Positions 3,985 to 36,042 of a stretch of 64,000 nt of DNA are shown here, in pieces. This DNA comes from an uncultured Verrucomicrobiota bacterium (GTDB lineage: Bacteria; Verrucomicrobiota; Verrucomicrobiia; Limisphaerales; UBA8199). A model generated the notes under the pieces. It ran no database searches, was not told where the DNA came from, and saw only the letters and a list, made by a program, of their open reading frames with translations. Made by a program: the position numbers and the translations under genes. Location of the stretch: contig CAYNZC010000004.1 in the NCBI GenBank assembly GCA_964401575.1, forward strand, positions 3,819 through 67,818, written 5' to 3'. The first letter of the stretch is position 1, and each line of letters opens with the position of its first letter.

Positions 3985-4415
3985 AGTTATCTCCTTTGTT
4001 GGTTATCTTGCCAGACGCTTGGGGTCCTCGTGTAGTTACAGCCGGCTTCATTCTTTTCTTAATGGGCGGGTGGTTTTGCTTGGCAATGCCGTTTGAACGG
4101 TCTAGGTATAGAGGTGTTCTTTGAAAGAGGCGGGTTTCTCCCGCCGCTATGTCACAGCCGGGCGTCAGGGAACCCTGTGAAAATCAGGGACGGTTGCGCC
4201 ACTGTAACGGGTTGCGAGTTCCCATCGCCACTGGAGGACACTCCGGGAAGGCGGGAGCGAGGTTAAAGCCCGAAGTCAGGATATCGGTCCGGTTGTGCTC
4301 GTCAGGCATGGTCATCCATTTCGTGAGATGTATCGCGATGGATGGGTCATGCCGCTTCTCCGACAAGAGAAGGATGAGGCCAGCCTTCTGCCGGTTGCAG
4401 AAGGGCCGCAGAATG

Positions 4416-11155: not shown

Positions 11156-11752
11156 TCACATCACTCTGGTGTAGGCGACCCTCCGCGTTGAAATGCCGCG
11201 CGCGTTGAACTCGCGCTCGAAATCCGTCACCGCCTGCGCCAATCCCGAGGGGGTCTCGAATGGGGCAAAGCTGGAACATTGCCTGAAGACCTGTTGCATC
11301 TGAGCAGAATAGGGCTCATCGTCTGTTCGCAGGTAAACGGCGCCGCCCACTCTCAAGGCGCGGGCGGCGATCATCGGGAAACCCTCGTTCACAAGGCGGC
11401 GCTGCCAGTGTTTTCTTTTTGGCCAGGGATCCGGAAAGTAAACGTGAATTGCAGAAAGGCTGCCCGGGCTGACGAGATAACGCAGCATGTAGGAGCACTC
11501 GATCCGTATTGCCAGCAGATTTTGCAGTCCTGCCCTGCGGCCTTTCCTGTCGAGTTTCCGAAGCCGTCCCAGGAGACGCTCCACTCCCACGAAGTTCACA
11601 TCGCGGTGCTGCGATGCGTACTCAGCGAGGAACGAGCCATCCCCGCTGCCGAGTTCGAGTTCGACCGGTTGCTCGGACGGGAACATCTGCGCGAAGCGCA
11701 GGGGCTCGACCACGCTCTCCAGGGTGTAAATCAGACTTTGCTGATCAGACAT
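11156..11752 (-). CDS. trmB: tRNA (guanine46-N7)-methyltransferase
   Basis: LELGSGDGSFL SAM motif and VYFPDPWPKRKHWQRRLV, the hallmark TrmB block. ATG at 11752 is preferred over GTG at 11773. Confidence 0.85.
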   Translation of the reverse strand: MSDQQSLIYTLESVVEPLRFAQMFPSEQPVELELGSGDGSFLAEYASQHRDVNFVGVERLLGRLRKLDRKGRRAGLQNLLAIRIECSYMLRYLVSPGSLSAIHVYFPDPWPKRKHWQRRLVNEGFPMIAARALRVGGAVYLRTDDEPYSAQMQQVFRQCSSFAPFETPSGLAQAVTDFEREFNARGISTRRVAYTRVM

Positions 11753-21112: not shown

Positions 21113-21886
21113 TCACAGTCTGCCCAACAATCGGAGCAGCCCGTCCAGAATAGTGAGCGGATGCGGCGGACAACCCGGAATATACAGGTCCACCGGGAAA
21201 AGTTTGTCTGCTCCTCCCACTGTCTGGCCAGTGCCACTGAACGGCTCACCCGAGATGGCACAGGCGCCCACTGCAATTACCAGCTTCGGATCAGGTGTGG
21301 CCTCGTAGGTCTTGCGAAGCGCGAGTTCCATGTTGCGCGTTACTGGGCCTGTGATCAGGAGCCCGTCTGCGTGGCGCGGGGAGGCGACGAGTTGAATGCC
21401 AAATCGGCCAAGGTCCCACCCGATTGTGCCTAGAACGTTGATATCGGATTCGCACGCGTTGCATCCGCCCGCGCTCACCTGTCGCAGCCTGAGGGAGCGG
21501 CCGAAGAGCTTTCTGAGTTTTTCGTCCAGCGCCGCAGCCAGTCTCAGTTCCTCTTTGCCGGGTTCGCCGACAACCAGATCTCCCGCCTTGCGCACTGCCA
21601 TGCGGTGATCGCTGGTCTGCGTAAGCGCACCCGGCTCGCATGCCTGGACGCACGCCGCGCAAAAAGTGCAGCGGCCAAGATCGAGTCTTAGCAAGGGCGG
21701 AGCTCCCTGGAATGCCTCCGTGGGACAGACCTCGGCGCATTTGTGGCAGTCTGTGGGGCAGCGCGCAGATTCGAGCCTGAGGCTGCCGCCATGACGATCC
21801 GGGAGTGACGGCGCTTTGCCTTCGGGATAGGCCATGGTCTGGCAACCGCGCTGCAACCGATGGGCTAATGTGCTTAGGACAAACAT
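21113..21886 (-). CDS. Ferredoxin (2x[4Fe-4S]) fused to NuoB/HycG-like small subunit
   Basis: N-terminal CPTDCHKCAEVCP and CTFCAACVQACEP. C-terminal GGCNACE, SPRHADGLLITG, GACAISGEPF, IPGCPPHP (NuoB/HycG cluster-binding pattern). Confidence 0.85.
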   Translation of the reverse strand: MFVLSTLAHRLQRGCQTMAYPEGKAPSLPDRHGGSLRLESARCPTDCHKCAEVCPTEAFQGAPPLLRLDLGRCTFCAACVQACEPGALTQTSDHRMAVRKAGDLVVGEPGKEELRLAAALDEKLRKLFGRSLRLRQVSAGGCNACESDINVLGTIGWDLGRFGIQLVASPRHADGLLITGPVTRNMELALRKTYEATPDPKLVIAVGACAISGEPFSGTGQTVGGADKLFPVDLYIPGCPPHPLTILDGLLRLLGRL

Positions 21887-21888
21887 GG

Positions 21889-23364
21889 TTAAAGGTCAAA
21901 ACCGCAGTATGACAAGTTGAAGCTCTTGTTGCAGATAGGGAAGTCGTAAATGGCTTCCCCCCGCAGGGCCAGTGCCAATCCCGTCCAATTATGGAATGAC
22001 GGATCCGTCACCTTGTACCGCGCGAACCTGCCGGCGACATCCGTGATTGCCACGTGGCAGACTTCGCCGCGCCAGCCCTCGACTAATGCAACCGCGATGC
22101 TTTCGGCCGTTGGTCGGGCAATGGGCTCAAACGTCAGTCCTGCCGGAGCCGCGGCGAGTTGCTCAAGTATGAAATTGCCGGAGCGTTGGATTTCGAGCCA
22201 GCGAACGCGAGCGCGCGCAAAAACATCCCCTCCAGGCCAAACAGCGACCGGCGCCTGGGCAAAACGATACCAGCCGGCCGGGTGATCGTAACGCACATCG
22301 CGCACGAGGCCACAGGCCCGGGCGGCGGGCCCCACGAGCCCGATTTCCCCGGCCTGAGCGGACGAAACAACCCCGAGCCGCTCAAACCGGGCGCGGACAG
22401 AAGACGAGTCCCACAGCCATTCAGCCGCCTTTTCCACATCCTGCAATACGGGTTTAATCTGTTTTTCCAGCTCCGCGATCCGCGCCGGATCCATGTCTCT
22501 TCGGCAGCCGCCCGGAACTGCCAGCGCGCGTCCGAACCGATTGCCGCACAGGAGAGCTGTCATGTTCAGAAAATCCCCGCGCAATTTGCCGCATGCCGAT
22601 GACGTGGGCAGGAAGGCTACATCGTTGGCAAGCGCGCCGATGTCGCCTGTGTGATTTGCCAGCCGCTCCAATTCGAGGGCAATGGCCCGCAGCCATTGAG
22701 CCCGCAGCGGCGCCTCAGCTCCCGAGAGCGATTCGAGCACGGAAGCGTAAGCTGTGGCATGCGCGATGGAAGAGTCTCCCGCGAGAGTCTCCATGCGGGC
22801 GAGGGTGGCTTTGTGCGGGCCTCCTTCCAGCGAGGGCTCGATGCCGCGGTGCTGATAGCCCAAAGCGATTTCCAGGTGCAGCACCTCCTCGCCGGCGCAT
22901 TGAAAACGGAAATGACCCGGCTCGATCACTCCCGCATGCACAGGACCCACGGCGACTTCGTGGACTTCACCCCCGTTTGCGGTGAAGAAATCGCCGACTG
23001 CCGGGCCCGGCCCGTGATCGCGCCGGACAGGTTTGAGCCAGGGGTGGCCATCCGGGACGATTTGGCATTGCTCCCAGAGCTCGCGCTCGAACATGTGCGC
23101 CTGTGGAATCCTCGGGGTCAGAGACGGATAGGACTGCTTAAACGGCAGGCTGCGGCCAATCCGGAGAGAATTGGAGGAATCGAGGGCCAGCACTGAAACA
23201 ATGCTCACCCCATCGGCTCGAGGAATCCCGAACCAGGAACTGAGCCGGGCGCCAGCTAGCACCCGGCGCTCTGTGGCGTCCGCAAGGTCTGCAATGGAGA
23301 CTTCCGGCACCTCGCTCAAAGGCAGGCTGGAGCCGTTGTTCAACTCAATGTAGGGTGCGCTCAT
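21889..23364 (-). CDS. NuoC+NuoD / HycE-HyfG-like large subunit homologue lacking [NiFe] cysteine ligands
   Basis: GPVHAGVIEPGHFRFQCAGEEVLHLEIALGYQHRGIE is the classic group-4 large subunit/NuoD block. The ATG at 23364 overlaps the upstream stop (ATGA). The N-terminal ~130 aa are NuoC-like. Confidence 0.85.
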   Translation of the reverse strand: MSAPYIELNNGSSLPLSEVPEVSIADLADATERRVLAGARLSSWFGIPRADGVSIVSVLALDSSNSLRIGRSLPFKQSYPSLTPRIPQAHMFERELWEQCQIVPDGHPWLKPVRRDHGPGPAVGDFFTANGGEVHEVAVGPVHAGVIEPGHFRFQCAGEEVLHLEIALGYQHRGIEPSLEGGPHKATLARMETLAGDSSIAHATAYASVLESLSGAEAPLRAQWLRAIALELERLANHTGDIGALANDVAFLPTSSACGKLRGDFLNMTALLCGNRFGRALAVPGGCRRDMDPARIAELEKQIKPVLQDVEKAAEWLWDSSSVRARFERLGVVSSAQAGEIGLVGPAARACGLVRDVRYDHPAGWYRFAQAPVAVWPGGDVFARARVRWLEIQRSGNFILEQLAAAPAGLTFEPIARPTAESIAVALVEGWRGEVCHVAITDVAGRFARYKVTDPSFHNWTGLALALRGEAIYDFPICNKSFNLSYCGFDL

Positions 23365-24800
23365 GGAATTGGAATCAGGATTTGGGCGGCGCTGCTCCAG
23401 ACTTCCAGCAGGAAACGTGGGGTAAAAAGACCCAGCCAAAGCGATGCGGCCAGCAACAGGAGCGGAGGCGCGACGGTGCCGGCGGCTTCACGCAGGGAGG
23501 CAGTGTTCCACGCGGCTTTGCGCGGGCGGCCATCCACAATGGAGAAGACAAGGCGCGTCATGCCGATGAAAGCCAGGAGCAGGCAAACGAGGAAGATGGT
23601 GGCGGTGATGTACTGATGGGAACCCACGGCAGCGCGAAGGATTCCCAACTCGCTGAAAAACGGGCCGAACGGCGGACAGGCCGTTACCGCGAGCAGACCA
23701 ACAACAAAAATCCTGGAGGAAAGCGGCGTCACCCAGGTCATCCCGGCAACTTCGATGTTTGTACGTGCTCCGGCCGCGCGGCGGAGGTTGCCGGCGCTCA
23801 GGAACAACGCGCCCTTGGTCAGAACGTTGCTCCACACGTGAAAGAGAGCGGCGCCGAGGCCGCCGACGCCGATGGAGGCGCCGATCGTCAGGATTCCCAT
23901 GTGCTCGACGCTCGAGTAAGCGAGCATGCGTTTGAAGTCCGGCGTGCCCAGCAGGAACAGCGCGGCGATGATCATTGAGAAAAGACCGAGGCAAAGCAAT
24001 GTCAGGGACGCGATGCTTTCCAATCCGGCGGCTGACACAACAGCCCGAACACGCAGCAGGGCGACGAATGCCACGGTCGTCATTCCCCCGGCAAGCATCG
24101 CGCCGATCATGCCGGGCGCTTCCCCGTAAGCGTCCGGCTTCCATGTATGCATCGGCGCCAGGCCCATCTTGGTGCCGAAGCCGGCCAGCAGCAACACCCA
24201 CGCAGCCAGAAGCCATGGTTTGGAGAGAGACCCTGCGGCGGCCTTAAGGCCTGTGAACGTGAGGTCGCCCTCCCCGCCGCTGTGCATGGACGAATAACCG
24301 AGAAAGAACGCTCCCAGCAGCGAAAGGGCGATTCCGGTGCCGCCGACCAGCAGGTACTTCCATGTAGCTTCGAACGCTCGAGGGGTGCCGTTGAAGTGCA
24401 GCAGCGGGACTGTTGCCAGCGTCGCGCCTTCCGCGGCGACCCAAAGCAGCCCAAGGTGCTGTGCCAGCAGCGAAAGGGTGATGAGACCTGTGAGTGCCAG
24501 CAGTGTGGCAATGAAAACACGGTTTGGCCGCTCCTTCCTGGTTTTCAGATAAGACACGCCGTATCCCGCGCACGCGAGAAAAAGGATTGAAACCGCCGGA
24601 AGCACCGCGCGTGCGATGGGGTCAAAGCCCAGCCAAAGGGCCGGATTCCAGGTGGGCGGGTCCAGAAACATCCAGAGCGAGAGGCCCGAATGCGGCAGCG
24701 CAGCCGCCGGCAGAAGCCAGGGACGAGTGTCCTCTTTAGGCCAGACCAATGCGATGATTGCGGCCGCGAACGGGATGGCAATGAGAATGATTTCTTTCAC
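23361..24800 (-). CDS. HyfF / NuoN-M-like antiporter-type membrane subunit
   Basis: 479 aa and polytopic. GFGTKMGLAPMHTWKPDAYGEAP and LAYSSVEHMG proton-pumping subunit motifs. GTG start overlaps the upstream stop (GTGA). Confidence 0.85.
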   Translation of the reverse strand: MKEIILIAIPFAAAIIALVWPKEDTRPWLLPAAALPHSGLSLWMFLDPPTWNPALWLGFDPIARAVLPAVSILFLACAGYGVSYLKTRKERPNRVFIATLLALTGLITLSLLAQHLGLLWVAAEGATLATVPLLHFNGTPRAFEATWKYLLVGGTGIALSLLGAFFLGYSSMHSGGEGDLTFTGLKAAAGSLSKPWLLAAWVLLLAGFGTKMGLAPMHTWKPDAYGEAPGMIGAMLAGGMTTVAFVALLRVRAVVSAAGLESIASLTLLCLGLFSMIIAALFLLGTPDFKRMLAYSSVEHMGILTIGASIGVGGLGAALFHVWSNVLTKGALFLSAGNLRRAAGARTNIEVAGMTWVTPLSSRIFVVGLLAVTACPPFGPFFSELGILRAAVGSHQYITATIFLVCLLLAFIGMTRLVFSIVDGRPRKAAWNTASLREAAGTVAPPLLLLAASLWLGLFTPRFLLEVWSSAAQILIPIP

Positions 24801-25438
24801 TCGTGAAGACTCGTAAGTTTGCGCGTGTCCAGGGTGTCAAAGGCGCGCTGGATGCGATCCGCGATGATGCCGATCACAAACACGCCGACCGTGAGGTCAA
24901 GAAGGATGCCGGTTTCAACCACCAGGGGCATCGCATTGATGAGCAGCAGGCCGAACAGGTAAATGCCATTCTCGAGCAGGAGATAGCCGCAGACCTGCGA
25001 AATGGCCTTGGTCCTGCCGATGAGCAGCAGCAGTCCCGCCACCACCGTTGCCAGAGCGGCTGGGACCAGGAGGACGTTGGAATGCTCCGGTAACAGCGGC
25101 AACGCTCCCGAAAAAGCCACCGCGCCAGTCGTTGCGGCGGCCCCCAGTAACAGCGAGGGAACAAAGCCGATCAGCGGCTCTTCCTCACGGTCCACATTCG
25201 CCGAGCGCATGGCGCGCCGGAGCAGGTGCGGGATGAGAAAGCCCTTGATTCCGATGGTTCCCACCGCAACCAGCAGGCCCAGCAACGTCATGTGCGAGCC
25301 GATCAGCAGGGGGAGGATGCCAATCACCATTCCCTGCATTGCTGCTGCGCGGATGATCGAGGGAATCCTGCTGCTGCCAAGAGCAAGGAGATTCAGGCCC
25401 ATGGCCACGCCCGTAAATAGGTTCAGGGATGCATTCAT
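24797..25438 (-). CDS. HyfE-like small membrane subunit
   Basis: 213 aa, all TM helices. Its position between the NuoH-like and NuoN-like genes is as in hyf operons. ATG at 25438 overlaps the upstream stop (ATGA). Confidence 0.7.
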   Translation of the reverse strand: MNASLNLFTGVAMGLNLLALGSSRIPSIIRAAAMQGMVIGILPLLIGSHMTLLGLLVAVGTIGIKGFLIPHLLRRAMRSANVDREEEPLIGFVPSLLLGAAATTGAVAFSGALPLLPEHSNVLLVPAALATVVAGLLLLIGRTKAISQVCGYLLLENGIYLFGLLLINAMPLVVETGILLDLTVGVFVIGIIADRIQRAFDTLDTRKLTSLHE

Positions 25439-26358
25439 TGGAGTGAGGATCCTTTCCACGCCGCCAGCAGGCCAAACAGGCACAGCAGAAAGGCGGTGAT
25501 CAGGAGTAGCGGAACCCGCCGGAAAGCGAAACGGGCCAGCAACGACTCAACGGCGCCCACCCCCACCATGATGATTCCCAGGGCAAGCACCGTCACGGCC
25601 ATCCCTCCCAATCCGCCCAGGTGAAGGCCCGGTAGCACGGCATCCGCCAGCAGTACCGCAAAGAGCAGGAGTTTGATGGCGCTGCCGTGCAGAATTGCGG
25701 CAAATGGCGGGCCGCTATGGTCCAGGACCATGGCCTCATGCACCATCGTCAGTTCAAGATGGGTGTTGGGGTCGTCGAACGGAACCCGGCAGTTCTCGGC
25801 CAAAAGGACGATGAAAAGCCCGGCGCCAATCAGCATGACGCCCGAGCCGGCAAAGGGCGTAAGCATGCCGGACAGAGAAAGGCTGCCGGTGCGGACGCTC
25901 AGGGTAATCAGGGCTGTGATCAAGGCGGCTTCCGCCAGTACCGCGTAGGACACCTCGCGCGCGGTGCCCATGCCCTCGAAGGCGGAGCCGGTCTCCAGTG
26001 AGGCGCACGCGATGGCAAACCGTGCCACTGCGAGCAGGTAAATGAACAGGAAGGCATCGCCACGAAATGACACTGTCGATCCAAATGGCCCAATTGGCAG
26101 AAGCGCGGCCGCGCAGCTAATGGCGATCCATGCAATGGCCGGCCCGATGATGTGTCCGGGCGAGGCTGCCGTGCTGATGACCACTCCCTTGCGCCAGAGC
26201 CGCGCGAGGTCGTAATAAAGCTGCAGCACAGGCGGTCCTTTTCGACCGGCGACCCACGCCTTGACCTTGTTGATGATGCCTGGGCCTAATGGCGCCAGGG
26301 CCATCCAAAAGGCGACACGAACAACAAACTCGGCAATGGTGGAGAGTGTGGCGCTCAT
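25435..26358 (-). CDS. HyfC / NuoH-like membrane subunit
   Basis: 307 aa. KVKAWVAGRKGPPVLQLYYDLARLWRKG and ENCRVPFDDPNTHLELTMVHEAM (NuoH/HycD-like motifs). ATG at 26358 overlaps the hyfB-like stop. The upstream extension of ORF 25435-26847 was rejected. Confidence 0.85.
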   Translation of the reverse strand: MSATLSTIAEFVVRVAFWMALAPLGPGIINKVKAWVAGRKGPPVLQLYYDLARLWRKGVVISTAASPGHIIGPAIAWIAISCAAALLPIGPFGSTVSFRGDAFLFIYLLAVARFAIACASLETGSAFEGMGTAREVSYAVLAEAALITALITLSVRTGSLSLSGMLTPFAGSGVMLIGAGLFIVLLAENCRVPFDDPNTHLELTMVHEAMVLDHSGPPFAAILHGSAIKLLLFAVLLADAVLPGLHLGGLGGMAVTVLALGIIMVGVGAVESLLARFAFRRVPLLLITAFLLCLFGLLAAWKGSSLQ

Positions 26359-28319
26359 GGAAGTCCTTTGAACATGGCAGCTCCCATCCAAGTCAGGAGC
26401 GCAATGCCAACCAGGCCGAAAACCAGGTAGAGAATGTAGGCCTGCAGGCGCCCGTGCTGATAGCTCCGGACTGCGGTTGAAAACCGCATCGTGATATGTC
26501 CTATGGGGGTGATCACTCTTTCGAGCACTGTCTCGGGCGTGTGCTCGGATGAAAAAGCCGTTTGTGGAAACAATTCCGTTGGAGGAACACGGTGCCGCTC
26601 CGGTCGGAGTATCCACTCGAACCATGAAACAATTGTTGAAGCGAAAGAACCGGCTGTGTACTGCATCCGCGGGGTGGGAGCGGCATAGCCGCAATCCCAT
26701 GTGCCGAATCTGCGGGCGCCGTTTTTGCGGACACGCCCGGCAAGCACCCAGGATACCAGCAGAGCCAGGCCCAGAAAAGCCAGGTTCGCGGCGCCCAGCG
26801 TGGACAGGGACGGTTCCAAACGAATGGCGGACCATGATGGGTTCCATGCCCTCGCAACGGTTTGGAGAGCCGGCGCCAGGGCCAGCGGAGCCAGGCCGAC
26901 GAACGCGCAGATCGCGGCCAGCACCAGCATGGGGATGCGCATGGCCGACCCCGATTCGCAGGCCTTCCCTGCAGCGGCGGAGCGGGGCAGGCCCAGGAAC
27001 ACGATGCCCACGACCTTAACGAAGCAGGCGAGGGCAAGCGCCCCTGTGATCGCGAGCGAGATCGCAGCCGGAACCGCGGCCCATGCGGCAGGTCCGCGCG
27101 CATCGATCGCATCAAATAAACCGAGGTAGAGGAGCCATTCGCTGACGAAGCCGTTTAGCGGCGGCAGGCCGGATATGGCCGCCGCGCCCAGGGTGAATAG
27201 ACCGGCCGTCCATGGCATGGAACGCCATAGGCCTCCCAGGCTGCTCATGTGTCGCGTGCCTGTGGCGTGCAGAACAGACCCTGCTCCAAGAAATAGCAGC
27301 GCCTTGAAGACGCCGTGGTTCCAAACGTGCAAGAGCCCCCCGGCGATTGCCAGGGCGCCCCATTCGGGATTTCCGGATTGAGCAGCAATCGCCGCCAGGC
27401 CCACGCCGAGCAGGATGATGCCGATGTTCTCGACACTGTGGTAAGCCAGCAGACGTTTGAGGTCGTGCTGCCCAAGGGCGAAGGCGACGCCAAGAACCGA
27501 GCTGATTGCGCCGAGGGCAAGAATCGTCCACCCCGCGCCGGCCGGAAGCGGTAGCCAGCCTGAGAATCTGACAATACCGTAGATTCCCATCTTGATAGCC
27601 ACGCCGGACATGATTGCGGAGACATGGCTCGGCGCGTTTGCGTGGGCTGAAGGCAGCCAGATGTGAAGTGGAAACAGGCCCGCCTTCACCCCGAACCCGA
27701 ACAAAGCAAGCCAGAAGAGCGGCGCCAACGAGGCGTCTGTGAAAGGTCCAATGGTCCACGAACCTGTGCGCGCGGCAAGGAGCGCAAAAAAGGCAAACAG
27801 GCAAAGGGTGCCGGCATGGGAGGTGGCAAGGTAAATCCACCCGGCGAGGCGCACCTCGCGCCGCTGGCGATCCAGCGTGATCAGGAAGTAAGCACAGACA
27901 GCAAACGCTTCCCACGCAATGAGGAAGTGCAGTCCGTTTGCCGCCGTAAGAACCGCACCCATGGAAAAGAGCAGGCAACTCCACCACGCCCGGCCGGCGG
28001 GCGCCGAGCGCGGGTGCGCGCGGTCCGGCCAATACTCCATGGAGTAAAGAGCGCCGGCAGCCCCAATGGTCACGAGCAGAACCAGGAAAAAAGCGCTCAG
28101 CGCATCAAGCCGCAAATGCACAGGCTGAGACCCGAGGGTCAGGCACGCCATGAATTCCCAGGGTTGTCCTGAGAAGAGAACCATAGCAGCTCCGGCCAGG
28201 CCTGCAGCGGCGGCAATAAACGTGCAACCCAGCCACAGGCGCGGCGCGCGAAAGGCGGCAGCGATCCCGAAAACAAGAGCTGCGGCGGCAATAAGAAGAA
28301 AAGTGCCCGGGTTCATCAT
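26355..28319 (-). CDS. HyfB / NuoL-like antiporter-type membrane subunit
   Basis: 654 aa. FGFGVKAGLFPLHIWLPSAHANAPSHVSAIMSG and LAYHSVENIG motifs. C-terminal extension as in HyfB. Confidence 0.85.
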   Translation of the reverse strand: MMNPGTFLLIAAAALVFGIAAAFRAPRLWLGCTFIAAAAGLAGAAMVLFSGQPWEFMACLTLGSQPVHLRLDALSAFFLVLLVTIGAAGALYSMEYWPDRAHPRSAPAGRAWWSCLLFSMGAVLTAANGLHFLIAWEAFAVCAYFLITLDRQRREVRLAGWIYLATSHAGTLCLFAFFALLAARTGSWTIGPFTDASLAPLFWLALFGFGVKAGLFPLHIWLPSAHANAPSHVSAIMSGVAIKMGIYGIVRFSGWLPLPAGAGWTILALGAISSVLGVAFALGQHDLKRLLAYHSVENIGIILLGVGLAAIAAQSGNPEWGALAIAGGLLHVWNHGVFKALLFLGAGSVLHATGTRHMSSLGGLWRSMPWTAGLFTLGAAAISGLPPLNGFVSEWLLYLGLFDAIDARGPAAWAAVPAAISLAITGALALACFVKVVGIVFLGLPRSAAAGKACESGSAMRIPMLVLAAICAFVGLAPLALAPALQTVARAWNPSWSAIRLEPSLSTLGAANLAFLGLALLVSWVLAGRVRKNGARRFGTWDCGYAAPTPRMQYTAGSFASTIVSWFEWILRPERHRVPPTELFPQTAFSSEHTPETVLERVITPIGHITMRFSTAVRSYQHGRLQAYILYLVFGLVGIALLTWMGAAMFKGLP

Positions 28320-29032
28320 TTCTGGGGTAAATGCTCCGTCGTCGTCTTGAGCTCTTCCGCCGGGCAGGATTGACTGAGCGCTCGAAAGACCTCGGCATCC
28401 GGCGCGCCGTTTTTGATGGACTGACCGAAGGGCCCACGCGTAATTGAAGCGCTGAGCCCCGCGAGTATTTCCAGGTGCGACCGTGGAGTCGGGGCCATAA
28501 AGAACAGCAGGTAGCGCACGGGCAGGCCGTCCGGGGTCGCTTCTTCGAGTGGCATCGGGGCGCTAAGCATCATGAGCGAGATCAGGCCGTGATCTCGTCC
28601 AAGCGCCACCCTGGAGCGCAGGTGCGGCAGCGCAAAGTGTTTCCCCACAGGAGCCCAGGTGAGGGCGCCGGGCGATTGAACGCGGTGAACCAGCATCTGG
28701 CGTATCTGTGGTGTGAGGCCCCCAAGACGTTCGATGACTCCCGCCAGGGTTAATGGCACATCTGCGGGATGAACCTCCCGCCAGATGCCGCCGCGGCGCA
28801 GCATTGCCTCAATCGCGCTGCAGTTCTCCGGATTGTCCTGCGCGGCGGAAGAAAGGAATCCTGCCCGTGCAGCAAGCCCGCGTTCCGTTGCCCATCCCGC
28901 GACTTGAGAGCGATCAAAAAGAAGACGGCCACTGTCCTTGACGCAAGGCAGGGCGTCATGCCGGACCCACGCCATGACAACGGACTCTTCGACCCCCAGG
29001 GATTGTGCGACTTGTATGAGGTTGAGATGCAT
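28316..29032 (-). CDS. HTH (excisionase/MerR-like) + PTS EIIA type-2 domain protein, copy 1
   Basis: MHLNLIQVAQSLGVEESVVMAWVRHDALP HTH. EIIA-2 core ...VGKHFALPHLRSRV...GLPVRYLLFFMAP. The stop overlaps the hyfB-like ATG (ATGA at 28316-28319). Confidence 0.75.
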   Translation of the reverse strand: MHLNLIQVAQSLGVEESVVMAWVRHDALPCVKDSGRLLFDRSQVAGWATERGLAARAGFLSSAAQDNPENCSAIEAMLRRGGIWREVHPADVPLTLAGVIERLGGLTPQIRQMLVHRVQSPGALTWAPVGKHFALPHLRSRVALGRDHGLISLMMLSAPMPLEEATPDGLPVRYLLFFMAPTPRSHLEILAGLSASITRGPFGQSIKNGAPDAEVFRALSQSCPAEELKTTTEHLPQK

Positions 29033-29071
29033 GTGATGGAATTGCCCCGGTTTGCGGCGGTTGCAGATGGT

Positions 29072-29794
29072 TTATGCCGGCTGTATTGCTTCGTGTTTGC
29101 CGGAGCGCCCCTTGACGGAGGAATCCCACTCTGTCTGCAGGCGATCCAATTCGGCCAGAATGTCCTCACGGGAGGCCTGAATCTGGATGAGGCGCATGAA
29201 ATGCCGGTCCCGCAGCGCGTATGCGAGCCGAGACTGCAAATGGAGTTGGGCTTTGACGCGCGGGCTGATCAGTGTGAACAACGCGTGCACCGGTTGCCCG
29301 TCGAGCGCCCCGTAATCGACGGGTCGCTCAAGAAAGCAGAGGGCCATGAGCGGCTTTGACAGGTGCAGCACCACCGGGTTGCGCAAATGCGGCATCGCCA
29401 CCCCGTTGCCAAGCGCTGTGGGCTCGATTCTTTCGCGCGCGAGAAGAACCTGCAGCAGGAATTCGCGATCCACCTCCTCCGGCAGGCGGAGCATTTCGAC
29501 AATCTGCCTCAGGCAGGCGGCTGGATCCTGACCGGAAATCCGGTAGTAGATCCCGCCGTTCAGGAGCGCATCCTTAAGAGCAGGGGGAGCGTCCGATTCC
29601 GACTCGGGTTCCGCAAATATCGCGGGGGAAACGCGAAGCTTTTCAGCGGTAGCCCAGGCCAGCAACTCGGCGCGATTGAACCGATATTGGCCGCTGATCC
29701 GGTAACCCGGCAGCTTCCCATCCTCGATCCAACGATAGACGGTCTTCTCGGAAACCTCCAGAAGCGCCGCGACATCTTTTACATTCAGTTGCAT
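29072..29794 (-). CDS. HTH (excisionase/MerR-like) + PTS EIIA type-2 domain protein, copy 2
   Basis: ATG at 29794: MQLNVKDVAALLEVSEKTVYRWIEDGKLPGYR HTH. EIIA-2 core LGNGVAMPHLRNPVV...DGQPVHALFTLISP. Paralogous to copy 1. Confidence 0.75.
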   Translation of the reverse strand: MQLNVKDVAALLEVSEKTVYRWIEDGKLPGYRISGQYRFNRAELLAWATAEKLRVSPAIFAEPESESDAPPALKDALLNGGIYYRISGQDPAACLRQIVEMLRLPEEVDREFLLQVLLARERIEPTALGNGVAMPHLRNPVVLHLSKPLMALCFLERPVDYGALDGQPVHALFTLISPRVKAQLHLQSRLAYALRDRHFMRLIQIQASREDILAELDRLQTEWDSSVKGRSGKHEAIQPA

Positions 29795-29825
29795 GCAGCC
29801 ACATTCACTGACCAACTGTCCCGGA

Positions 29826-29842
29826 TTGGACAATTTTGGACA
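29826..29842 (-). promoter_or_regulatory. Direct repeat TTGGACA x2 with 10-bp phasing upstream of the HTH-EIIA / hyf-like operon
   Basis: ttggaca at 29826-29832 and at 29836-29842, 32-48 nt upstream of the ATG at 29794. An AT-rich segment with TTGACT (minus strand) lies further upstream. Function not demonstrated. Confidence 0.25.
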
Positions 29843-29923
29843 TGGTTCATAATTATGGGAAAAAAGTCAAGAGCCGCCATCCCCAAAGCGTTCGCTTTCT
29901 GGCTTCAAACAGAGGGCCTCGCC

Positions 29924-30463
29924 TCACTGGTTCTCTTGCGCTCTGGCGTCTGCTTTACGTGCCAGCAGCCAAAGAAGATCGGATAGACGGTTCAAATAAA
30001 CCAGGAACTCCCGCCTGGTGTCTCCGGCCTCGGAAAGCCCACATGCGGCGCGTTCGGCGCGTCTGCAAATGGTTCGTGCCAGGTCCAGGGCAGCTCCCGC
30101 TTTGGTATCGCCCGGCATGGCCCAGCCGCCAAAGCTTACGCCGCTGCTTTCGAGGTCTTGGATAAGTGTTTCAACGGTTCGGATATGATCGTTGGTGAAC
30201 CGGGCGTAGCCTTCTTTCTGGTACCGCTCAGCGTCCTCCGGCGCGGTCGCCAGCTCACCCATGATGGGGACGAGGTGTTTTTGAATGCTTTGCAGGGCGG
30301 CACGGGTGGATGGTTCGGTGCAGGCAGCCCGTGCCACGCCGAGGGCGGCGTTGAGTTCGTCCACCGTGCCGTAGGCCTCCACCCTGGGGTGGCATTTGGA
30401 AACGATACGCCCATACATGAGGCTTGTTGTGCCCTGGTCTCCGCGTTTTGTGACGATGCTCAT
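29924..30463 (-). CDS. PduO-type ATP:cob(I)alamin adenosyltransferase
   Basis: ATG at 30463: MSIVTKRGDQGTTSLMYG...RVEAYGTVDELNAALGVARA, the canonical PduO-type N-terminus. ~180 aa. Confidence 0.85.
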   Translation of the reverse strand: MSIVTKRGDQGTTSLMYGRIVSKCHPRVEAYGTVDELNAALGVARAACTEPSTRAALQSIQKHLVPIMGELATAPEDAERYQKEGYARFTNDHIRTVETLIQDLESSGVSFGGWAMPGDTKAGAALDLARTICRRAERAACGLSEAGDTRREFLVYLNRLSDLLWLLARKADARAQENQ

Positions 30464-30637
30464 GGGTATGCCGCCGAAAGAGCCGATTTTGGAGGTGCTG
30501 CGGCGGAAGGCAAGCGCAAGATGGGCGGAATTCTCGAAGAAAATCGTGAAGTTTAAGTCACACTTAGTTTCCGTTTGCACAAGGCGCAAGCGTGCTTTAG
30601 GTTGCCGGGAATTCCGCGGGAACAAACAGAGAAAATT

Positions 30638-31927
<1,290 letters not shown>

Positions 31928-31942
31928 CCGGCGAGTGTGCCC

Positions 31943-33145
31943 ATGAATATACACGAATACCAGGCGAGGGAGTTGCTGGGAAAGCGCGGGCTGCCGCTTC
32001 CGCCCGGCGATGTGTGTGATACGCCCGAACAGGCCGGAAGAATTGCCGGGGAATTGCTGAAGAACGGCGCCCGCAAGCTCGCGATCAAGTCACAGGTGCA
32101 TGCCGGGGGCCGAGGCAAGGGCACATTCAAGGACGGCTATCAAGGGGGAGTCAAGCTGGCCACCACAGCCCCGGAAATCGAGGCAATGGCCAGGTCCATG
32201 CTGGGCAACGTCCTCGTCACCCGGCAAACCGGTTCGGAAGGACGCCTGGTGCGCAACGTGATCGTGGCCCTTGCGCCGGACATTGTAAAAGAGCTTTACC
32301 TGGCGGTGCTGTTGGACCGGGCTCTGGCGCGGCCCGTGATCATGGCCAGCAGCGAAGGGGGAATGGACATCGAGGAAGTGGCGGCAAAGGCTCCGGAGAA
32401 GATCATTCGTGAGCCTGTGGATCCGCTGGTTGGGTTGCTGCCATTCCAGGCGCGGCGGGTGGCGCGTGCCCTGGGGCTTAGGGGGGACCTGTTGAATGCC
32501 GGCGCGAAGTGCATTCAAAGCGCTTACCGAGCCTGGTGGGAATGCGATGCCTCGCTGGTGGAAATCAACCCCTTGTGCATCGTTCGGGAAAACGACGGCA
32601 AACTTTCTCTCCTGGCGGTGGATTCCAAGCTGACCGTGGACGACAACTCGCTCTATAGACACCCGGAAATACAGGCCATGAGGGACACCGGGGAGGAAGC
32701 GCCGCTGGAGACAGAGGCCGCCAGGCACAATCTTAATTATATCAAGCTGGACGGAAACATTGCCTGCCTGGTTAACGGCGCCGGCCTGGCGATGGCCACC
32801 ATGGACATTATTCAACATTATGGCGGACGGCCCGCCAATTTCCTGGATGTCGGCGGCGGGGCATCCGAAGCCCAGGTAACTGCGGCTTTCAGGATTATTT
32901 TGCAGGACCCGCACGTTCGCGGAATCCTGGTGAACATCTTTGGCGGTATCATGGATTGCAACGTGATCGCCTCTGGGATTGTTGCGGCCGTCAGGGAAAC
33001 CGGTTTGAAGCTGCCCCTTGTGGTGCGGTTGGAGGGCAACAACGTGGAAGCTGGAAAAGCAACCCTCGTCAACTCCGGGTTGACGATTATCAGCGGCGAA
33101 ACGATGGCGGACGCCGCAGCCAAGATAGTGAAGGCCATTAGCTGA
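31943..33145 (+). CDS. sucC: Succinate--CoA ligase (ADP-forming) beta subunit
   Basis: MNIHEYQARELL, KSQVHAGGRGKG, EINPL, NGAGLAMATMD, FLDVGGGA, NIFGGI. Confidence 0.9.
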   Translation: MNIHEYQARELLGKRGLPLPPGDVCDTPEQAGRIAGELLKNGARKLAIKSQVHAGGRGKGTFKDGYQGGVKLATTAPEIEAMARSMLGNVLVTRQTGSEGRLVRNVIVALAPDIVKELYLAVLLDRALARPVIMASSEGGMDIEEVAAKAPEKIIREPVDPLVGLLPFQARRVARALGLRGDLLNAGAKCIQSAYRAWWECDASLVEINPLCIVRENDGKLSLLAVDSKLTVDDNSLYRHPEIQAMRDTGEEAPLETEAARHNLNYIKLDGNIACLVNGAGLAMATMDIIQHYGGRPANFLDVGGGASEAQVTAAFRIILQDPHVRGILVNIFGGIMDCNVIASGIVAAVRETGLKLPLVVRLEGNNVEAGKATLVNSGLTIISGETMADAAAKIVKAIS

Positions 33146-33154
33146 AGGGCACGC

Positions 33155-34045
33155 ATGTCAATTCTGGTAACACCTGATACGAAGCTGCTGGTTCAAGGCA
33201 TCACCGGCGGTTTTGGAGCGCAGCACGCAAAGCTGAGTCTGGCCTACGGCACGAGACTTGTTGCGGGTGTGACACCCGGCAAGGGCGGACAGATCTTCGA
33301 GGGAAAGGTTCCCATTTTCGACACCGTGGCCGAGGCAGTCAACGAGACCGGCGCCACCGCTTCAGCCATCTTTGTCCCGCCGGCGTTTGCGGCGGATGCC
33401 ATCCTGGAGGGAGTGGATGCCGGGTTGGAGTTGGTGGTTTGCATCACCGAAGGAATACCGGTCAATGATATGCTGAAGGTCAAACGCGCGATGCAGGGCG
33501 GGCGCACGCGCTTGATTGGGCCAAACTGTCCGGGCATTGTCACTCCCGGGGAAGGCAAGGGATCGCATGGCGGCTGCAGGATCGGCATTTCGCCCGGTTA
33601 CATCCACAGAAGAGGCCACATCGGCGTTGTGTCCCGCAGCGGCACGCTCACCTACGAGGCTGTCTGGCAATTGACGTGCAGGGGTGTGGGGCAATCTACG
33701 TGTGTCGGCATTGGAGGTGATCCCGTGGCGGGGATGTCGCATCTGGATATTATCAAGCTCTTCAACGAGGATCCGGAAACCGAGGGGATCATCATGATCG
33801 GCGAAATCGGCGGGTCGGCTGAAGAAGAAGCCGCCGACTGGATCAAGAGCCACTGCCGGAAGCCCGTTGCCGGGTTCATCGCGGGAGCCACCGCCCCCCC
33901 GGGACGCCGCATGGGCCATGCCGGGGCGATCGTCAGCGGCGGAAAGGGCACGGCTGCGGCCAAGATTGAGGCCTTCCGTGCGGCGGGAATCGGTGTGGCG
34001 GCTACCCCTTCGGAAATGGCTGACACGCTGCTTCGAATGATGTAA
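33155..34045 (+). CDS. sucD: Succinate--CoA ligase alpha subunit
   Basis: [32 protein letters not shown] and the MGHAGAI phosphohistidine loop. Confidence 0.9.
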
Positions 34046-34093: not shown

Positions 34094-34951
34094 ATGTCAC
34101 TTATAGACTCCATTCTGAACCTGGCCGGTCTGCTGCTGTGGCTGAACTGGCGCTCGCTGCATTTCGATCCGTTGGCCAGCCGCAAGCCGGCGACTCTGAT
34201 CGGCACACTCAAACCCGCCACGGCCGCCAAGGCCCGGCGTTGGATGATTCTTGTGTCGCTGCCTGCGCTGCTCTTTTTTCGCGCGTTGCTCTACTGGCAG
34301 ATCGGCGCGCCGGCGGATTGGCTGCCCAAGCTGGATCTCGGGGCGGTGGTGTTGGTCTTTCGCGTGGATCAGTTCGGTTACGCGGCGGTTTTTTCCGCGT
34401 TCAGTTTTCTGCGATTTGCAGCGGTGGCATTTTTCTGGTTTGCCGCCCTTTGCATTGTGAACCGCAGGGTGCTGGATCCCGACCCTCTGCTGAGATTGCT
34501 GCGGCTGCAGTTGGGAAGGTTTGCGCAAGCGCCGCTGGTCATCCAGATTCTGTTTCCACTCATTGGCGCAGTATTATTCTGGGCGGCCCTGCATCCTTTG
34601 CTCAGTTGGGCACAAACGGTTGGCGGCGCCCGCTCAGCCTCTCAGGTTCTGATTCAGGGGCTGCTGGTCACTGCCGGGTTGCTGACCACACTCAAGCTGC
34701 TGTTTCCGGTGCTGCTGCTGCTCCACATGCTGTCGAGCTACGTTTACCTTGGGAAAAACCCGTTCTGGGATTTTATCACTATCACAGCGCGCAACCTGCT
34801 TTGGGTGTTGCCCGCCAAAGGTCTGCGAACGTCCCGGTTTGATTTTGCGCCGTTGGTGGCAATCGTCCTGATTTTATTGGTGCTTCACACAGTGCCCACG
34901 ATCGCGTTAAAGCTGCTCGCGAATCACGGTGTGACCGTCTGGCCCGAATAG
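34094..34951 (+). CDS. Integral membrane protein, unknown function
   Basis: ATG at 34094 (MSLIDSILNLAGLLLWLNW). Several hydrophobic segments. I do not recognise a family with confidence. Confidence 0.5.
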   Translation: MSLIDSILNLAGLLLWLNWRSLHFDPLASRKPATLIGTLKPATAAKARRWMILVSLPALLFFRALLYWQIGAPADWLPKLDLGAVVLVFRVDQFGYAAVFSAFSFLRFAAVAFFWFAALCIVNRRVLDPDPLLRLLRLQLGRFAQAPLVIQILFPLIGAVLFWAALHPLLSWAQTVGGARSASQVLIQGLLVTAGLLTTLKLLFPVLLLLHMLSSYVYLGKNPFWDFITITARNLLWVLPAKGLRTSRFDFAPLVAIVLILLVLHTVPTIALKLLANHGVTVWPE

Positions 34952-36042
34952 GCTTTTCTGGGAAGCTTCAGGGTCACTTCCGTCATGGCCCCGCGCTCGC
35001 TTGTGATGTTCAAAGTGCCGCCGTGCAATTCGGCAATTCTTTTGGAAATGACGAGCCCGAGCCCAAGCCCCTGCTGTTCCTGAATTCTGCGGTCAAACTG
35101 CATGTAGGCGCCAATCCGCGTGATATGCTCTGTCGCCAGCCCCCGTCCCTGGTCAACCACGGACAGGATAATGGTGTTGGCATCCGCCGAAAGGCGCACC
35201 TGCACCGGAGTGCCCGGTATGGAGAATTTGAAGGCATTCTGCACCAGTTCGCTCGTGATGCGGCGCAGGTAATCCTCGGATAACGGCACCGATACAGGGG
35301 CGAGTTCGAGCACAAGGTCTTTTTCTCGTTTGGCAGCGCGCGCTTCAAGCCGGGATTGCTCTTCAATCTGCGGGGCGGCCAGTTCCGTCCGATTCTTTCT
35401 CAGGAGAGCCACTTTCTGGGGATCGGCGGACATGATTTCGAGCTGGGCGTATATCAGAAAGTTCTCCACAAGCCGCTCGAGGCGCTTGCCGGATTGGTAA
35501 ATAACCTGTCCCATCTCGGCCACCTCGGACGCCGGCAGTGTCTCAGCCTCCGTGGAAAGAATTTCCCCGTAGGCCATAATGCCGTTCAGCGGTGTCCGCA
35601 GCTCGTGAGGCAGCATCAGGCTGATGTTGTCCCGCAGATCGGCCAGCTTTTTCTCGGCGGCCTCGCGAACAGCCTCGGCTTTCCTGAGCCGTGCATTGAT
35701 GGCGGCGTAGAGCCCATCCAGCGAGAACGGCTTGGCCAGGTAATCGTCGGCGCCGAGTTCCATGCCGTGGCGCATCCCGGCGTTGTCAGCCACGCCGGTC
35801 ATAAGAATGAAGGGAATCGATGCCGTGGAAGGCTCGTTGCGCAGGGACGAAAGGGTAAGGTACCCATCCACCTTGTCCATGTTCACATCGCAGAGAATAA
35901 GGTCCGGCAGCGCCCGCCGGGCCACTTCGATGCCAACAGCACCGTTTTCGGCTTCGAGAACATCATAGCCCTTTTGTGTTAAGGCCATTCGGACCATCTC
36001 ACGAAGCCATTCCTCGTCGTCAATGACTAAAATCTTCTTCAT
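34924..36042 (-). CDS. Response-regulator receiver fused to histidine kinase core (REC-HisKA-HATPase)
   Basis: MKKILVIDDE...DLILCDVNMDKVDG...K receiver. H-box LPHELRTPLNGI. DQGRGL and GLGLGLVISK ATPase boxes. Its 3' end overlaps the convergent 34094 gene by 28 nt. Confidence 0.85.
   Translation of the reverse strand: MKKILVIDDEEWLREMVRMALTQKGYDVLEAENGAVGIEVARRALPDLILCDVNMDKVDGYLTLSSLRNEPSTASIPFILMTGVADNAGMRHGMELGADDYLAKPFSLDGLYAAINARLRKAEAVREAAEKKLADLRDNISLMLPHELRTPLNGIMAYGEILSTEAETLPASEVAEMGQVIYQSGKRLERLVENFLIYAQLEIMSADPQKVALLRKNRTELAAPQIEEQSRLEARAAKREKDLVLELAPVSVPLSEDYLRRITSELVQNAFKFSIPGTPVQVRLSADANTIILSVVDQGRGLATEHITRIGAYMQFDRRIQEQQGLGLGLVISKRIAELHGGTLNITSERGAMTEVTLKLPRKAYSGQTVTP

Follow-up and report, generated by a model that had tools for sequence, protein, structure and literature searches.

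How might an Ehr complex be controlled? Ehr complexes are widespread and related both to complex I and to the group 4 hydrogenases, and their physiological role is still described as uninvestigated (PMC7894505; PMC6349859). The question is raised by a 64-kb stretch of DNA from an uncultured Verrucomicrobiota bacterium (Limisphaerales, UBA8199; contig CAYNZC010000004.1), hereafter the window. On its minus strand two adjacent genes, here called A1 and A2, form the regulatory head of an operon of about 8.7 kb with the order A1-A2-hyfB-hyfC-hyfE-hyfF-large subunit-small subunit. Each encodes a helix–turn–helix (HTH) domain followed by an EIIA type-2 domain of the phosphotransferase system (PTS). 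An earlier note, made by reading the sequence, had described the pair as a possible phosphorylation-gated regulator, and both genes, an upstream repeat and the ATGA joining A2 to the hyfB-like gene were all found where it had placed them. The best overall explanation, to which we assign a probability of about 0.5, is that A1 is a one-component, operator-binding autoregulator and A2 a PTS-type partner of the Ehr complex. The components are of known kinds, EIIA-Ntr regulators and DNA binders of the HTH_17 type; what they are connected to is an enigmatic relative of complex I. Ehr complexes gain from this a concrete regulatory handle, composed of a sensor-regulator family, an operator that tracks its recognition helix, a paralogue among the structural genes, and a recurrent linkage to SulP/STAS transporters. 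Control of an ion-translocating, respiratory-type complex by a permease-less PTS, at the levels of both transcription and protein, is now testable.

A1, an HTH_17 domain fused to an EIIA-Ntr-like domain

A1 matches the Pfam families HTH_17 (PF12728) with 61.8 bits and PTS_EIIA_2 (PF00359) with 74.3 bits, the cut-off being 27 for each. Its N-terminal domain also scores 49.7 bits against the NCBIfam model ‘excise’ (cut-off 28.8) and matches BldC weakly. A defence or mobile-element reading of the HTH_17 match, suggested by the NCBIfam names MADS1 and excisionase, was rejected in view of the fusion to EIIA and of synteny with a chromosomal operon. The start codon is the ATG at 29794, because the orthologues all begin MQLTV; the same observation rules out a longer open reading frame (ORF) that starts with TTG at 29833.

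In an alignment to PtsN structures, the A1 sequence GNGVAMPH, which contains His136, falls on GNGIAIPH of Escherichia coli PtsN, whose histidine we take to be the phosphorylated His73. The equivalents of PtsN Arg57 and His120 are kept as well, LLARE aligning with ILTRE and AQLHL with THLHT. An AlphaFold2 model (pLDDT 88) predicts a winged HTH joined by a linker to an EIIA-2 fold, with PtsN structures (3urr, 1a6j, 4gqx) as its best matches in the PDB; regulatory domains of SLC4 transporters also match it in the structure search. Because the curated equivalog thresholds are missed, at 54.4 versus 138.7 bits for TIGR01419 and 48.5 versus 221 bits for NF008145, the EIIA domain is PtsN-like without being that of a PtsN orthologue. 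NCBIfam places the C-terminal domains of the two proteins nearest PtsN and FruA-type EIIA, far under the equivalog thresholds.

The A1 architecture is not confined to this locus. A1 has 3997 database relatives, and a profile search of cluster representatives returned 601 clusters at 50% identity with E ≤ 1e-30. The best 150 of these clusters consist nearly all of full-length two-domain proteins of about 230 amino acids (aa), and the histidine motif G-x-G-x-A-x-P-H is kept in 114 of 131 full-length representatives of distant clusters. Public annotations list the relatives of A1 and A2 as ‘PTS sugar transporter subunit IIA’ or ‘nitrogen regulatory IIA’; for genes of this type the former name is probably misleading.

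A candidate operator that tracks the recognition helix

The earlier note had proposed the direct repeat TTGGACA (plus strand), upstream of the A1 ATG, as a candidate operator. The two copies, at 29826-29832 and 29836-29842, are exact and 10 nucleotides (nt) apart. Read in the orientation of the gene, the window has TTGACT, 17 nt, AACCAT, then GTCCAAAATTGTCCAA, and one T is shared, as the end of the −10-like hexamer AACCAT and the beginning of repeat 1. Within the window alone the repeat is only mildly unusual: when the 132-nt intergenic region was shuffled, a 7-mer repeat arose at a spacing of 9-11 nt in 1.5% of cases and at any spacing up to 60 nt in 17%, while an exact TGTCC-N5-TGTCC occurs once in the 64 kb. 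Its significance derives from its conservation in other genomes. The arrangement TTGACA-22 nt-TGTCCA-N4-TGTCCA is found in all 15 aligned A1 loci, the window included, 42-52 nt before the ATG (16 nt in locus L085), and in 13 of them 28 nt separate the start of an upstream TTGAC(A/T) from that of the first TGTCC repeat. At the −10 position the orthologous loci hold AATAAT, TTTAAT or TAGAAT. A search of 87 loci (about 1.3 Mb) gave 14 exact matches to the pattern, 11 of them just upstream of A1; the remaining three (L046, L065, L067) adjoin no HTH–EIIA gene, equal in number the chance expectation (our own estimate, both strands), and were rejected as real sites.

The strongest evidence for recognition comes from co-variation. 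Of the loci whose A1 has the recognition helix SEK(T/S)(V/I)YR, again counting the window, 20 of 20 carry the repeat or, in L116, the variant GTCCA-N5-GTCCA; A1 proteins with any other recognition helix, drawn from a wider metagenome set, have the repeat at none of 15 loci. Three SER variants (e.g., SERTVYRW) have TTTGAC or TTGAC repeats 9-10 nt apart upstream instead. That a different helix comes with different repeats suggests that helix and operator co-evolve, and such co-variation is what direct recognition predicts. Since the TGTCC repeat tracks its recognition helix, A1 is very probably an operator-binding autoregulator, that is, an EIIA-sensing transcription factor with a defined operator. 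Congruent with this assignment, BldC, Xis and RdfS, which are HTH_17 relatives, attach head-to-tail to direct repeats spaced by one turn of the DNA (PMC11963761), and the two copies in the putative A1 target likewise run in the same direction at a spacing of about one helical turn. The repeats that accompany alternative helices lie at about 4290-4310 in L122, in L111, and at about 1060-1080 in L154; in L106, at about 4230-4250, the repeated unit is TACGT.

What was proposed as a cis-element thus stands, being exact, conserved and co-varying with the helix; its assignment is narrower. Because the repeat lies at the −10/+1 region of the promoter in front of A1, it points to autoregulation by A1 and not by both proteins. 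Its position over −7 to +10 suggests that A1 represses the operon promoter. Upstream of 55 A2-type operons that lack A1, neither a TGTCC repeat nor a shared 8-mer nor a sigma-54 promoter was found. An RNA element was also considered and rejected, as there is no Rfam match, the fold of the leader is not significant (z = −1.1), and repeat 1, overlapping the −10 hexamer, would not be transcribed. Ten nt downstream of repeat 2, a near-copy of the half-site in inverted orientation, TTGGTCA, reads TTGGTCC in the closest relative (L088) and has no wider conservation.

A2, a diverged paralogue among the structural genes

Judged by sequence, A1 and A2 are paralogues that diverged anciently. They share 26.7% identity over 225 aa (E 1e-16), and their family profiles align end to end with an hhalign probability of 99.8%, His136 of A1 and His137 of A2 occupying the same column (ALPH on AMPH). 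The histidines are therefore, as the earlier note had held, at the phosphorylation position in both proteins, that of A1 by alignment to PtsN and that of A2 by alignment to A1. His137 is invariant in 22 orthologues, and the second active-site histidine (His120 in PtsN) has its counterpart in H186, also invariant in orthologues; the arginine that in A1 corresponds to Arg57 aligns with a proline. For A2, PTS_EIIA_2 scores 31.3 bits, just over the Pfam cut-off of 27, whereas HTH_17 reaches 23.3 bits and falls under it, so that the profile check upheld EIIA-2 for both proteins and HTH_17 for A1 alone. The AlphaFold2 model of A2 nonetheless has the same three parts as that of A1, and fold model and family profile both confirm the winged HTH plus EIIA-2 architecture despite the sub-threshold HTH_17 match. 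Pfam, NCBIfam, alignment to PDB entries and structure search agree on an HTH fused to EIIA-2 in both proteins, with the histidine retained. In the structure search, SLC4 regulatory domains (5jho, 8eeq, 7v0u) rank first for the A2 model, with PtsN next. A2 has 1435 database relatives.

Paralogues though they are, the two do not form the equivalent pair that had been supposed: A1 is a canonical DNA binder with a candidate operator, while A2 has an acidic, sub-threshold HTH and no upstream motif. The residues K17, T18, Y20 and R21, invariant in the recognition helix of A1, are replaced in A2 by S, V, E/M and G/A, respectively, giving the helix consensus VEESVVEGW as opposed to VSEKTVYRW. The mean net charge of the 50-aa HTH is −2.8 in the A2 family versus +1.3 in the A1 family. 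Because the DNA-contact residues of the A1 type are lost and the HTH is acidic, A2 more likely acts on the Ehr complex itself. Taken together, the lost contact residues, the missing upstream motif and a translationally coupled position among the structural genes make it most likely that A2 acts by protein contacts, either with the complex or with a neighbouring transporter. That A2 is a regulatory partner of the Ehr complex is our best guess, a tentative one that leans on analogy. A third, divergent HTH–EIIA paralogue of 241 aa, about 26% identical to A1 and with the histidine kept, is encoded at L053:15672-16394; its gene, inserted in an A2-type operon, separates the hyfF-like gene from that of the large subunit, and among the loci surveyed it was observed at this one only.

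Linkage across genomes

Relatives of A2 were surveyed with one genome per species. An A2 relative was present in 261 genomes, and 80 loci were fetched; counts of upstream genes and of overlaps refer to 81 loci, the 80 plus L002, a copy of the window. Nearly all A2-bearing loci are labelled Verrucomicrobiota, mainly Opitutaceae, Limisphaerales and Verrucomicrobiales, and the cultured carriers include Geminisphaera colitermitum TAV2 and a Horticoccus strain. At loci with sequence downstream, the genes that come after A2 on its strand are hyfB-hyfC-hyfE-hyfF-large-small or start directly with hyfC, the sole real exception being L057. A 4-nt overlap between the A2 stop codon and the next long ORF is present in 62 of the 81 loci. 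Directly upstream of A2 stands another hyfB-like gene in 32 of the 81 loci and a SulP + STAS transporter gene in 18; the upstream order is SulP then hyfB-like in nine, A1 then SulP in five, and A1 then hyfB-like in four (once with two hyfB-like genes). With a hyfB-like gene upstream and hyf genes downstream, A2 often sits between structural genes.

An independent scan, which avoids the bias of starting from A2, used a large-subunit alignment to search metagenome contigs; 30 of the loci reach 900 nt or more beyond the start of the first hyfB-like gene, and in 22 of these an HTH–EIIA gene came first. Linkage to hyf-like modules, as the earlier note had envisaged, is thus conserved across Verrucomicrobiota in both the 80 A2 loci and the large-subunit-anchored set.

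The tandem arrangement fares differently. A1 and A2 are indeed adjacent in the window, but the arrangement is a derived condition particular to one lineage, and in most genomes no A1 adjoins A2: among the 81 A2 loci, direct adjacency is limited to the window and its copy L002. The closest relative (L088; A1 78% and A2 61% identical) has the order A1-SulP-A2-hyfB and onward, from which we infer that the adjacency is derived and that SulP was lost from the window; no SulP homologue was found in the 64 kb by tblastn with E. coli sequences and motif regular expressions. Elsewhere, A1 heads a paralogous Ehr operon (L084, L085, L087, L091), with subunits 40-55% identical to those of the window, or SulP alone (L089, L090), or SulP-A2-Ehr (L088). 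It overlaps the next gene by 4 nt in L085/L086 and L087 and is separated from it by 0-30 nt in L084, L088, L089 and L091. Tandem HTH–EIIA pairs recur in the distant metagenomic relatives L106 (3498-5200), L148 (332-1900) and L154 (1140-2800), and in the latter two the pair is followed by two hyfB-like genes (A-A-B-B-C and onward).

A gene with Pfam SulP and STAS domains is a recurrent member of the unit, as in L088:10742-12550, L023:8173-9981 and L089:10729-12471, and is found at 32 of the 81 A2 loci. The orders are A1-SulP-A2-Ehr, SulP-A2-Ehr, SulP-hyfB-A2-Ehr and A1-SulP alone. This recurrence hints that the Ehr complex and an anion transporter of the sulfate or bicarbonate type cooperate or share regulation.

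Further regulators and operons appear around these loci. A second Ehr/hyf-like operon, about 30-45% identical, often adjoins the A2-type operon and has no HTH–EIIA gene of its own (L005:13477-15231, L009, L024:16-7587, L035:2040-9068, L066:17988-20640, L077:9428-12842, L078:16034-20529); in L035 an ArsR-like gene, called by eye from its translation, apparently precedes it. At A1-less loci of ten species, a divergently oriented gene for an NtrC-type sigma-54 response regulator, also called by eye, lies upstream of a hyfB-A2 operon, as at L081:4330-5733 (minus strand), and a simple regular expression found no sigma-54 promoter near these loci.

The membrane complex

The subunit set encoded downstream is complete for a group-4-hydrogenase-like machine, with HyfB-, HyfC-, HyfE- and HyfF-like membrane subunits, a NuoCD-like large subunit and a NuoI + NuoB-like fusion. 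Alignment of the large subunit to HycE (7z0s) places TLAGDSSIAH on RVCGICGFAH and NLSYCG on DPCYSC. The NiFe-ligand cysteines are accordingly replaced (CGIC to AGDS), and both substitutions are conserved in relatives, whereas the Fe-S motifs of the small subunit and the ferredoxin are retained. Because the large subunit is without NiFe-ligand cysteines, the complex is Ehr-type: by its sequence it is a hydrogenase-related, NiFe-less, complex-I-like membrane complex that fits the published Ehr definition.

The large subunit bears two further features. Near its C-terminus (window 21889-21980), where NiFe hydrogenases have DPCxxC, it has an invariant DFP(I/L)CNKSFNLSYCG(F/H)DL with the spacing C-x9-C, which is also present in L001, L084, L085, L087, L088 and L091; the N-terminal CxxC has become ETLAGD(S/T)(S/T)I. 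The two motifs are possibly a signature of the clade. In L087, from a metagenome-assembled genome of the Methylacidiphilales, hypC-hypD-hypE and NuoE/NuoG-like genes (191-2615, 11162-13448) lie on either side of the A1-type Ehr operon. A real hydrogenase in that operon, which hypCDE upstream might suggest, was rejected because its large subunit is without the same cysteines.

Proposed mechanism and alternatives

In the mechanism proposed here, the winged HTH of A1, of the excisionase/BldC type, would bind head-to-tail on the two TGTCCA repeats, one helical turn apart. As these sites cover both the last part of the −10 element and the start of transcription, A1 would most likely repress the promoter of its own operon; what is observed is the position of the repeats and their co-variation with the helix, from which the binding and its sign are deduced. 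The EIIA-Ntr-like domain would serve as the signal input, and the likeliest signal would be reversible phosphorylation of His136 by a regulatory PTS of the EI-Ntr/NPr type, which might change either the oligomerisation of A1 or its occupancy of the repeats. A2, which keeps the EIIA fold and the histidine without the DNA-contact residues, would contact the Ehr complex protein-to-protein, in the way that EIIA-Ntr acts on TrkA and KdpD and EIIA-Glc on permeases. Gating through His136 and His137 is plausible, with the chances about even, given that the histidine context is invariant or nearly so in both families. Conceivably, A2 could go further and be a stoichiometric Ehr subunit that docks on the HyfB/NuoL-like module, as SLC4 N-terminal domains do, and switches ion translocation upon phosphorylation by a permease-less PTS, with A1 relaying the same signal to the promoter. 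This version is unlikely. If true, it would make the complex the first machine of the complex-I family to be gated directly by PTS phosphorylation, and would connect Ehr complexes, enigmatic so far, with anion (SulP) and ion homeostasis.

Several observations weigh against the combined account of A1 as autoregulator and A2 as partner of the complex. No EI, HPr/NPr or other PTS gene was found in the window or the fetched loci by tblastn with E. coli sequences and by motif regular expressions, which for EI and HPr/NPr in the window agrees with the earlier note; PTS-Ntr genes, for their part, are normally unlinked to their targets. The A2 model is moderately confident (pLDDT 76), the Arg57 equivalent of PtsN has no clean alignment in A2, and A2 retains the wing arginines R36 and R41 as well as W22, all of them invariant. 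The −10 hexamer of the window is weak (3/6), and a consensus promoter scan made no call at the A1 promoter, a miss attributable to that weak match. Since similarity to A2 was the criterion by which the A2 loci were collected, their linkage is conditional on the presence of A2. Finally, eight of the 30 related Ehr operons are without an HTH–EIIA gene, as are the neighbouring divergent Ehr operons; set against the 22 that have one, they indicate a linkage that is general for this Ehr clade and not obligatory.

Much of this evidence could be accommodated differently. The invariant wing residues and W22, the shared two-domain architecture and the predicted winged fold would all be expected if A1 and A2 were both ordinary DNA-binding transcription factors, with A2 reading another, less conserved or internal operator and the operon position reflecting autoregulatory wiring; regulators encoded inside operons are not rare. 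Yet the HTH_17 score of A2 lies under the Pfam cut-off, its recognition-helix residues are replaced and the domain is acidic, the 55 A2-type operons without A1 share no upstream motif, and the A2 gene, with its conserved 4-nt overlap, is enclosed by genes for membrane subunits; together these points make this reading improbable, though less so than the next. In that one, A2 would leave the membrane complex alone and exert its effect via regulators of the A1 type, whether as an anti-repressor or by joining them in hetero-oligomers on DNA. HTH_17 proteins do oligomerise head-to-tail via a wing-HTH surface (PMC11963761). The two genes are co-expressed in the window, and L106, L148 and L154 have their tandem pairs; about 70 of the 80 A2 loci, however, have no nearby A1 and no TGTCC operator, and we regard such a role as quite improbable.

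A different doubt concerns the signal. The EIIA-like domains might never be phosphorylated and might work as ligand-binding or scaffolding modules, like the N-terminal domains of SLC4 proteins and Band 3, with the histidine structural or used in binding. SLC4 domains outrank PtsN as matches of the A2 model and match the A1 model too, a SulP anion transporter adjoins A1 and A2 genes in relatives, and none of about 170 loci has PTS genes nearby. Such unlinked PTS genes would be normal for PTS-Ntr, though, and the (near-)invariance of His136, His137 and the G-x-G-x-A-x-P-H motif in both families, which extends to the distant representatives, together with the Arg57 and His120 equivalents of A1, leaves this explanation doubtful. 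Chance or artefact, in the form of mis-called ORFs and a generic ‘PTS sugar transporter subunit IIA’ label, might be suspected from a 7-mer repeat that is modestly unusual within the window and from the name that databases use. It is practically negligible: synteny, stop/start overlap, operator and helix–operator co-variation are conserved over many genomes, so that an artefact is already refuted, and no EIIB/EIIC permease gene was found near A1 or A2 among the loci with Pfam-listed neighbours.

Comparison with known systems

A1 as autoregulator and A2 as partner of the complex resemble several characterized systems in part. EIIA-Ntr (PtsN) has the same EIIA type-2 fold and is the best sequence and structure match for A1 (3urr, 4gqx, 1a6j, 2a0j); with equivalents of His73, Arg57 and His120 and no permease partner, A1 would have a purely regulatory role. 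PtsN stands alone, at about 160 aa and without a DNA-binding domain, and its gene is usually in the rpoN cluster; its known targets TrkA and KdpD belong to ion-transport systems. In rhizobia, ABC transporters and Kdp are reported as targets (PMC3665714, PMC9239096). Unlike PtsN, the domain in A1 and A2 is fused to a winged HTH and hard-wired to its presumed target by operon and translational coupling. PTS regulation domain (PRD) proteins of the MtlR/LicR/ManR type also combine DNA-binding and EIIA type-2 domains in one polypeptide, so that PTS phosphorylation can gate transcription. Having two PRDs and an EIIB-like domain, however, they reach about 650-700 aa, and they control sugar catabolic operons, whereas A1 and A2, at about 240 aa, have no Pfam PRD or EIIB match and control or accompany a respiratory-type membrane complex.

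BldC, Xis and RdfS have an HTH of the same family as that of A1, and the 10-nt-phased TGTCCA repeats match their head-to-tail binding one turn apart. In contrast to A1, whose HTH is fused to an EIIA sensor and whose site lies in a core promoter, they are single-domain, sensorless proteins of recombination or development. The N-terminal domains of SLC4 transporters (Band 3, AE2, NDCBE) likewise use an EIIA-like fold as the cytoplasmic regulatory module of an ion transporter, and in relatives of the window a SulP anion transporter gene adjoins A1- and A2-type genes. SLC4 domains are eukaryotic, covalently fused to the transporter and not known to be phosphorylated on a PTS histidine, and the sequence identity is just 11-14%. 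On the side of the complex, Geobacter Ehr GSU0739-45 has the same subunit set and has lost the NiFe-ligand cysteines. A PTS-type or HTH–EIIA partner goes unmentioned in the Ehr papers PMC7894505 and PMC6349859, and the M. infernorum genome paper does not mention a PTS. The searchable literature yielded no description of HTH–EIIA proteins or of a link between PTS and Ehr, and nothing pertinent on a PTS in Verrucomicrobia, in keeping with the earlier note, which knew of no such arrangement.

Locus and gene neighbourhood

The features of the locus are collected in the table. The hyfB-like gene, which the 4-nt overlap places in one translational unit with A2, as had been proposed, is followed by five genes, and the operon ends at 21113 with the ferredoxin + NuoB-like fusion.

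Table. Positions of the genes and candidate regulatory elements in the window (NCBIfam and Pfam scores in bits)
Feature	Position	Strand	Remarks
-35-like hexamer TTGACT	29865..29870	-	read in sequence
-10-like hexamer AACCAT	29842..29847	-	3/6 match to TATAAT, 17 nt after -35
Candidate A1 operator TGTCCAA-N3-TGTCCAA	29826..29842	-	direct-repeat pair, 10-nt spacing; spans about -7 to +10 of the inferred promoter
Inverted half-site near-copy TTGGTCA (6/7)	29809..29815	-	10 nt downstream of repeat 2; status uncertain
A1	29072..29794	-	240 aa, ATG start; HTH_17 aa 3-50, EIIA-Ntr-like aa ~76-216, His136 codon at 29387-29389
A2	28316..29032	-	238 aa; degenerate acidic winged HTH + EIIA-2 fold, His137 codon at 28622-28624
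ATGA overlap, A2 stop / hyfB-like start	28316..28319	-	read in sequence; translational coupling
HyfB/NuoL-like antiporter-type membrane subunit	26355..28319	-	654 aa; Pfam Proton_antipo_M; NCBIfam ‘hydrogenase 4 subunit B’ 548, below cut-off of 667
HyfC/NuoH-like membrane subunit	25435..26358	-	Pfam NADHdh, 94
HyfE-like small membrane subunit	24797..25483	-	NCBIfam ‘hydrogenase 4 membrane subunit’ 78, below cut-off
HyfF/NuoN-like antiporter-type membrane subunit	23361..24800	-	Pfam Proton_antipo_M; NCBIfam ‘hydrogenase 4 subunit F’ 237, below cut-off
NuoC/NuoD-like (HycE-like) large subunit without NiFe ligands	21889..23439	-	best PDB sequence match HycE 7z0s
2x[4Fe-4S] ferredoxin (NuoI/HyfH-like) + NuoB/HyfI-like fusion	21113..21886	-	Pfam Fer4 families + Oxidored_q6; NCBIfam NuoB/NuoI subfamilies

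Upstream of A1 and on the same strand lies a gene for a PduO-type cobalamin adenosyltransferase (Pfam; 29927-30460, minus strand), with a terminator-like hairpin at 30000-30019 inside its 3′ end. The opposite strand at 30575-34045 (plus) carries a citrate synthase-like gene (Pfam Citrate_synt in the identical locus L002) and a succinyl-CoA synthetase-like gene called by eye from its translation. This PduO / citrate synthase-like neighbourhood is not kept in relatives. Directly past the 3′ end of the operon, a hybrid histidine kinase with the domain order HAMP-GAF-HisKA-HATPase-REC is encoded at 17503-19848 (plus strand), and on the other flank a second one, REC-HisKA-HATPase, is encoded at 34924-36042 (minus strand).

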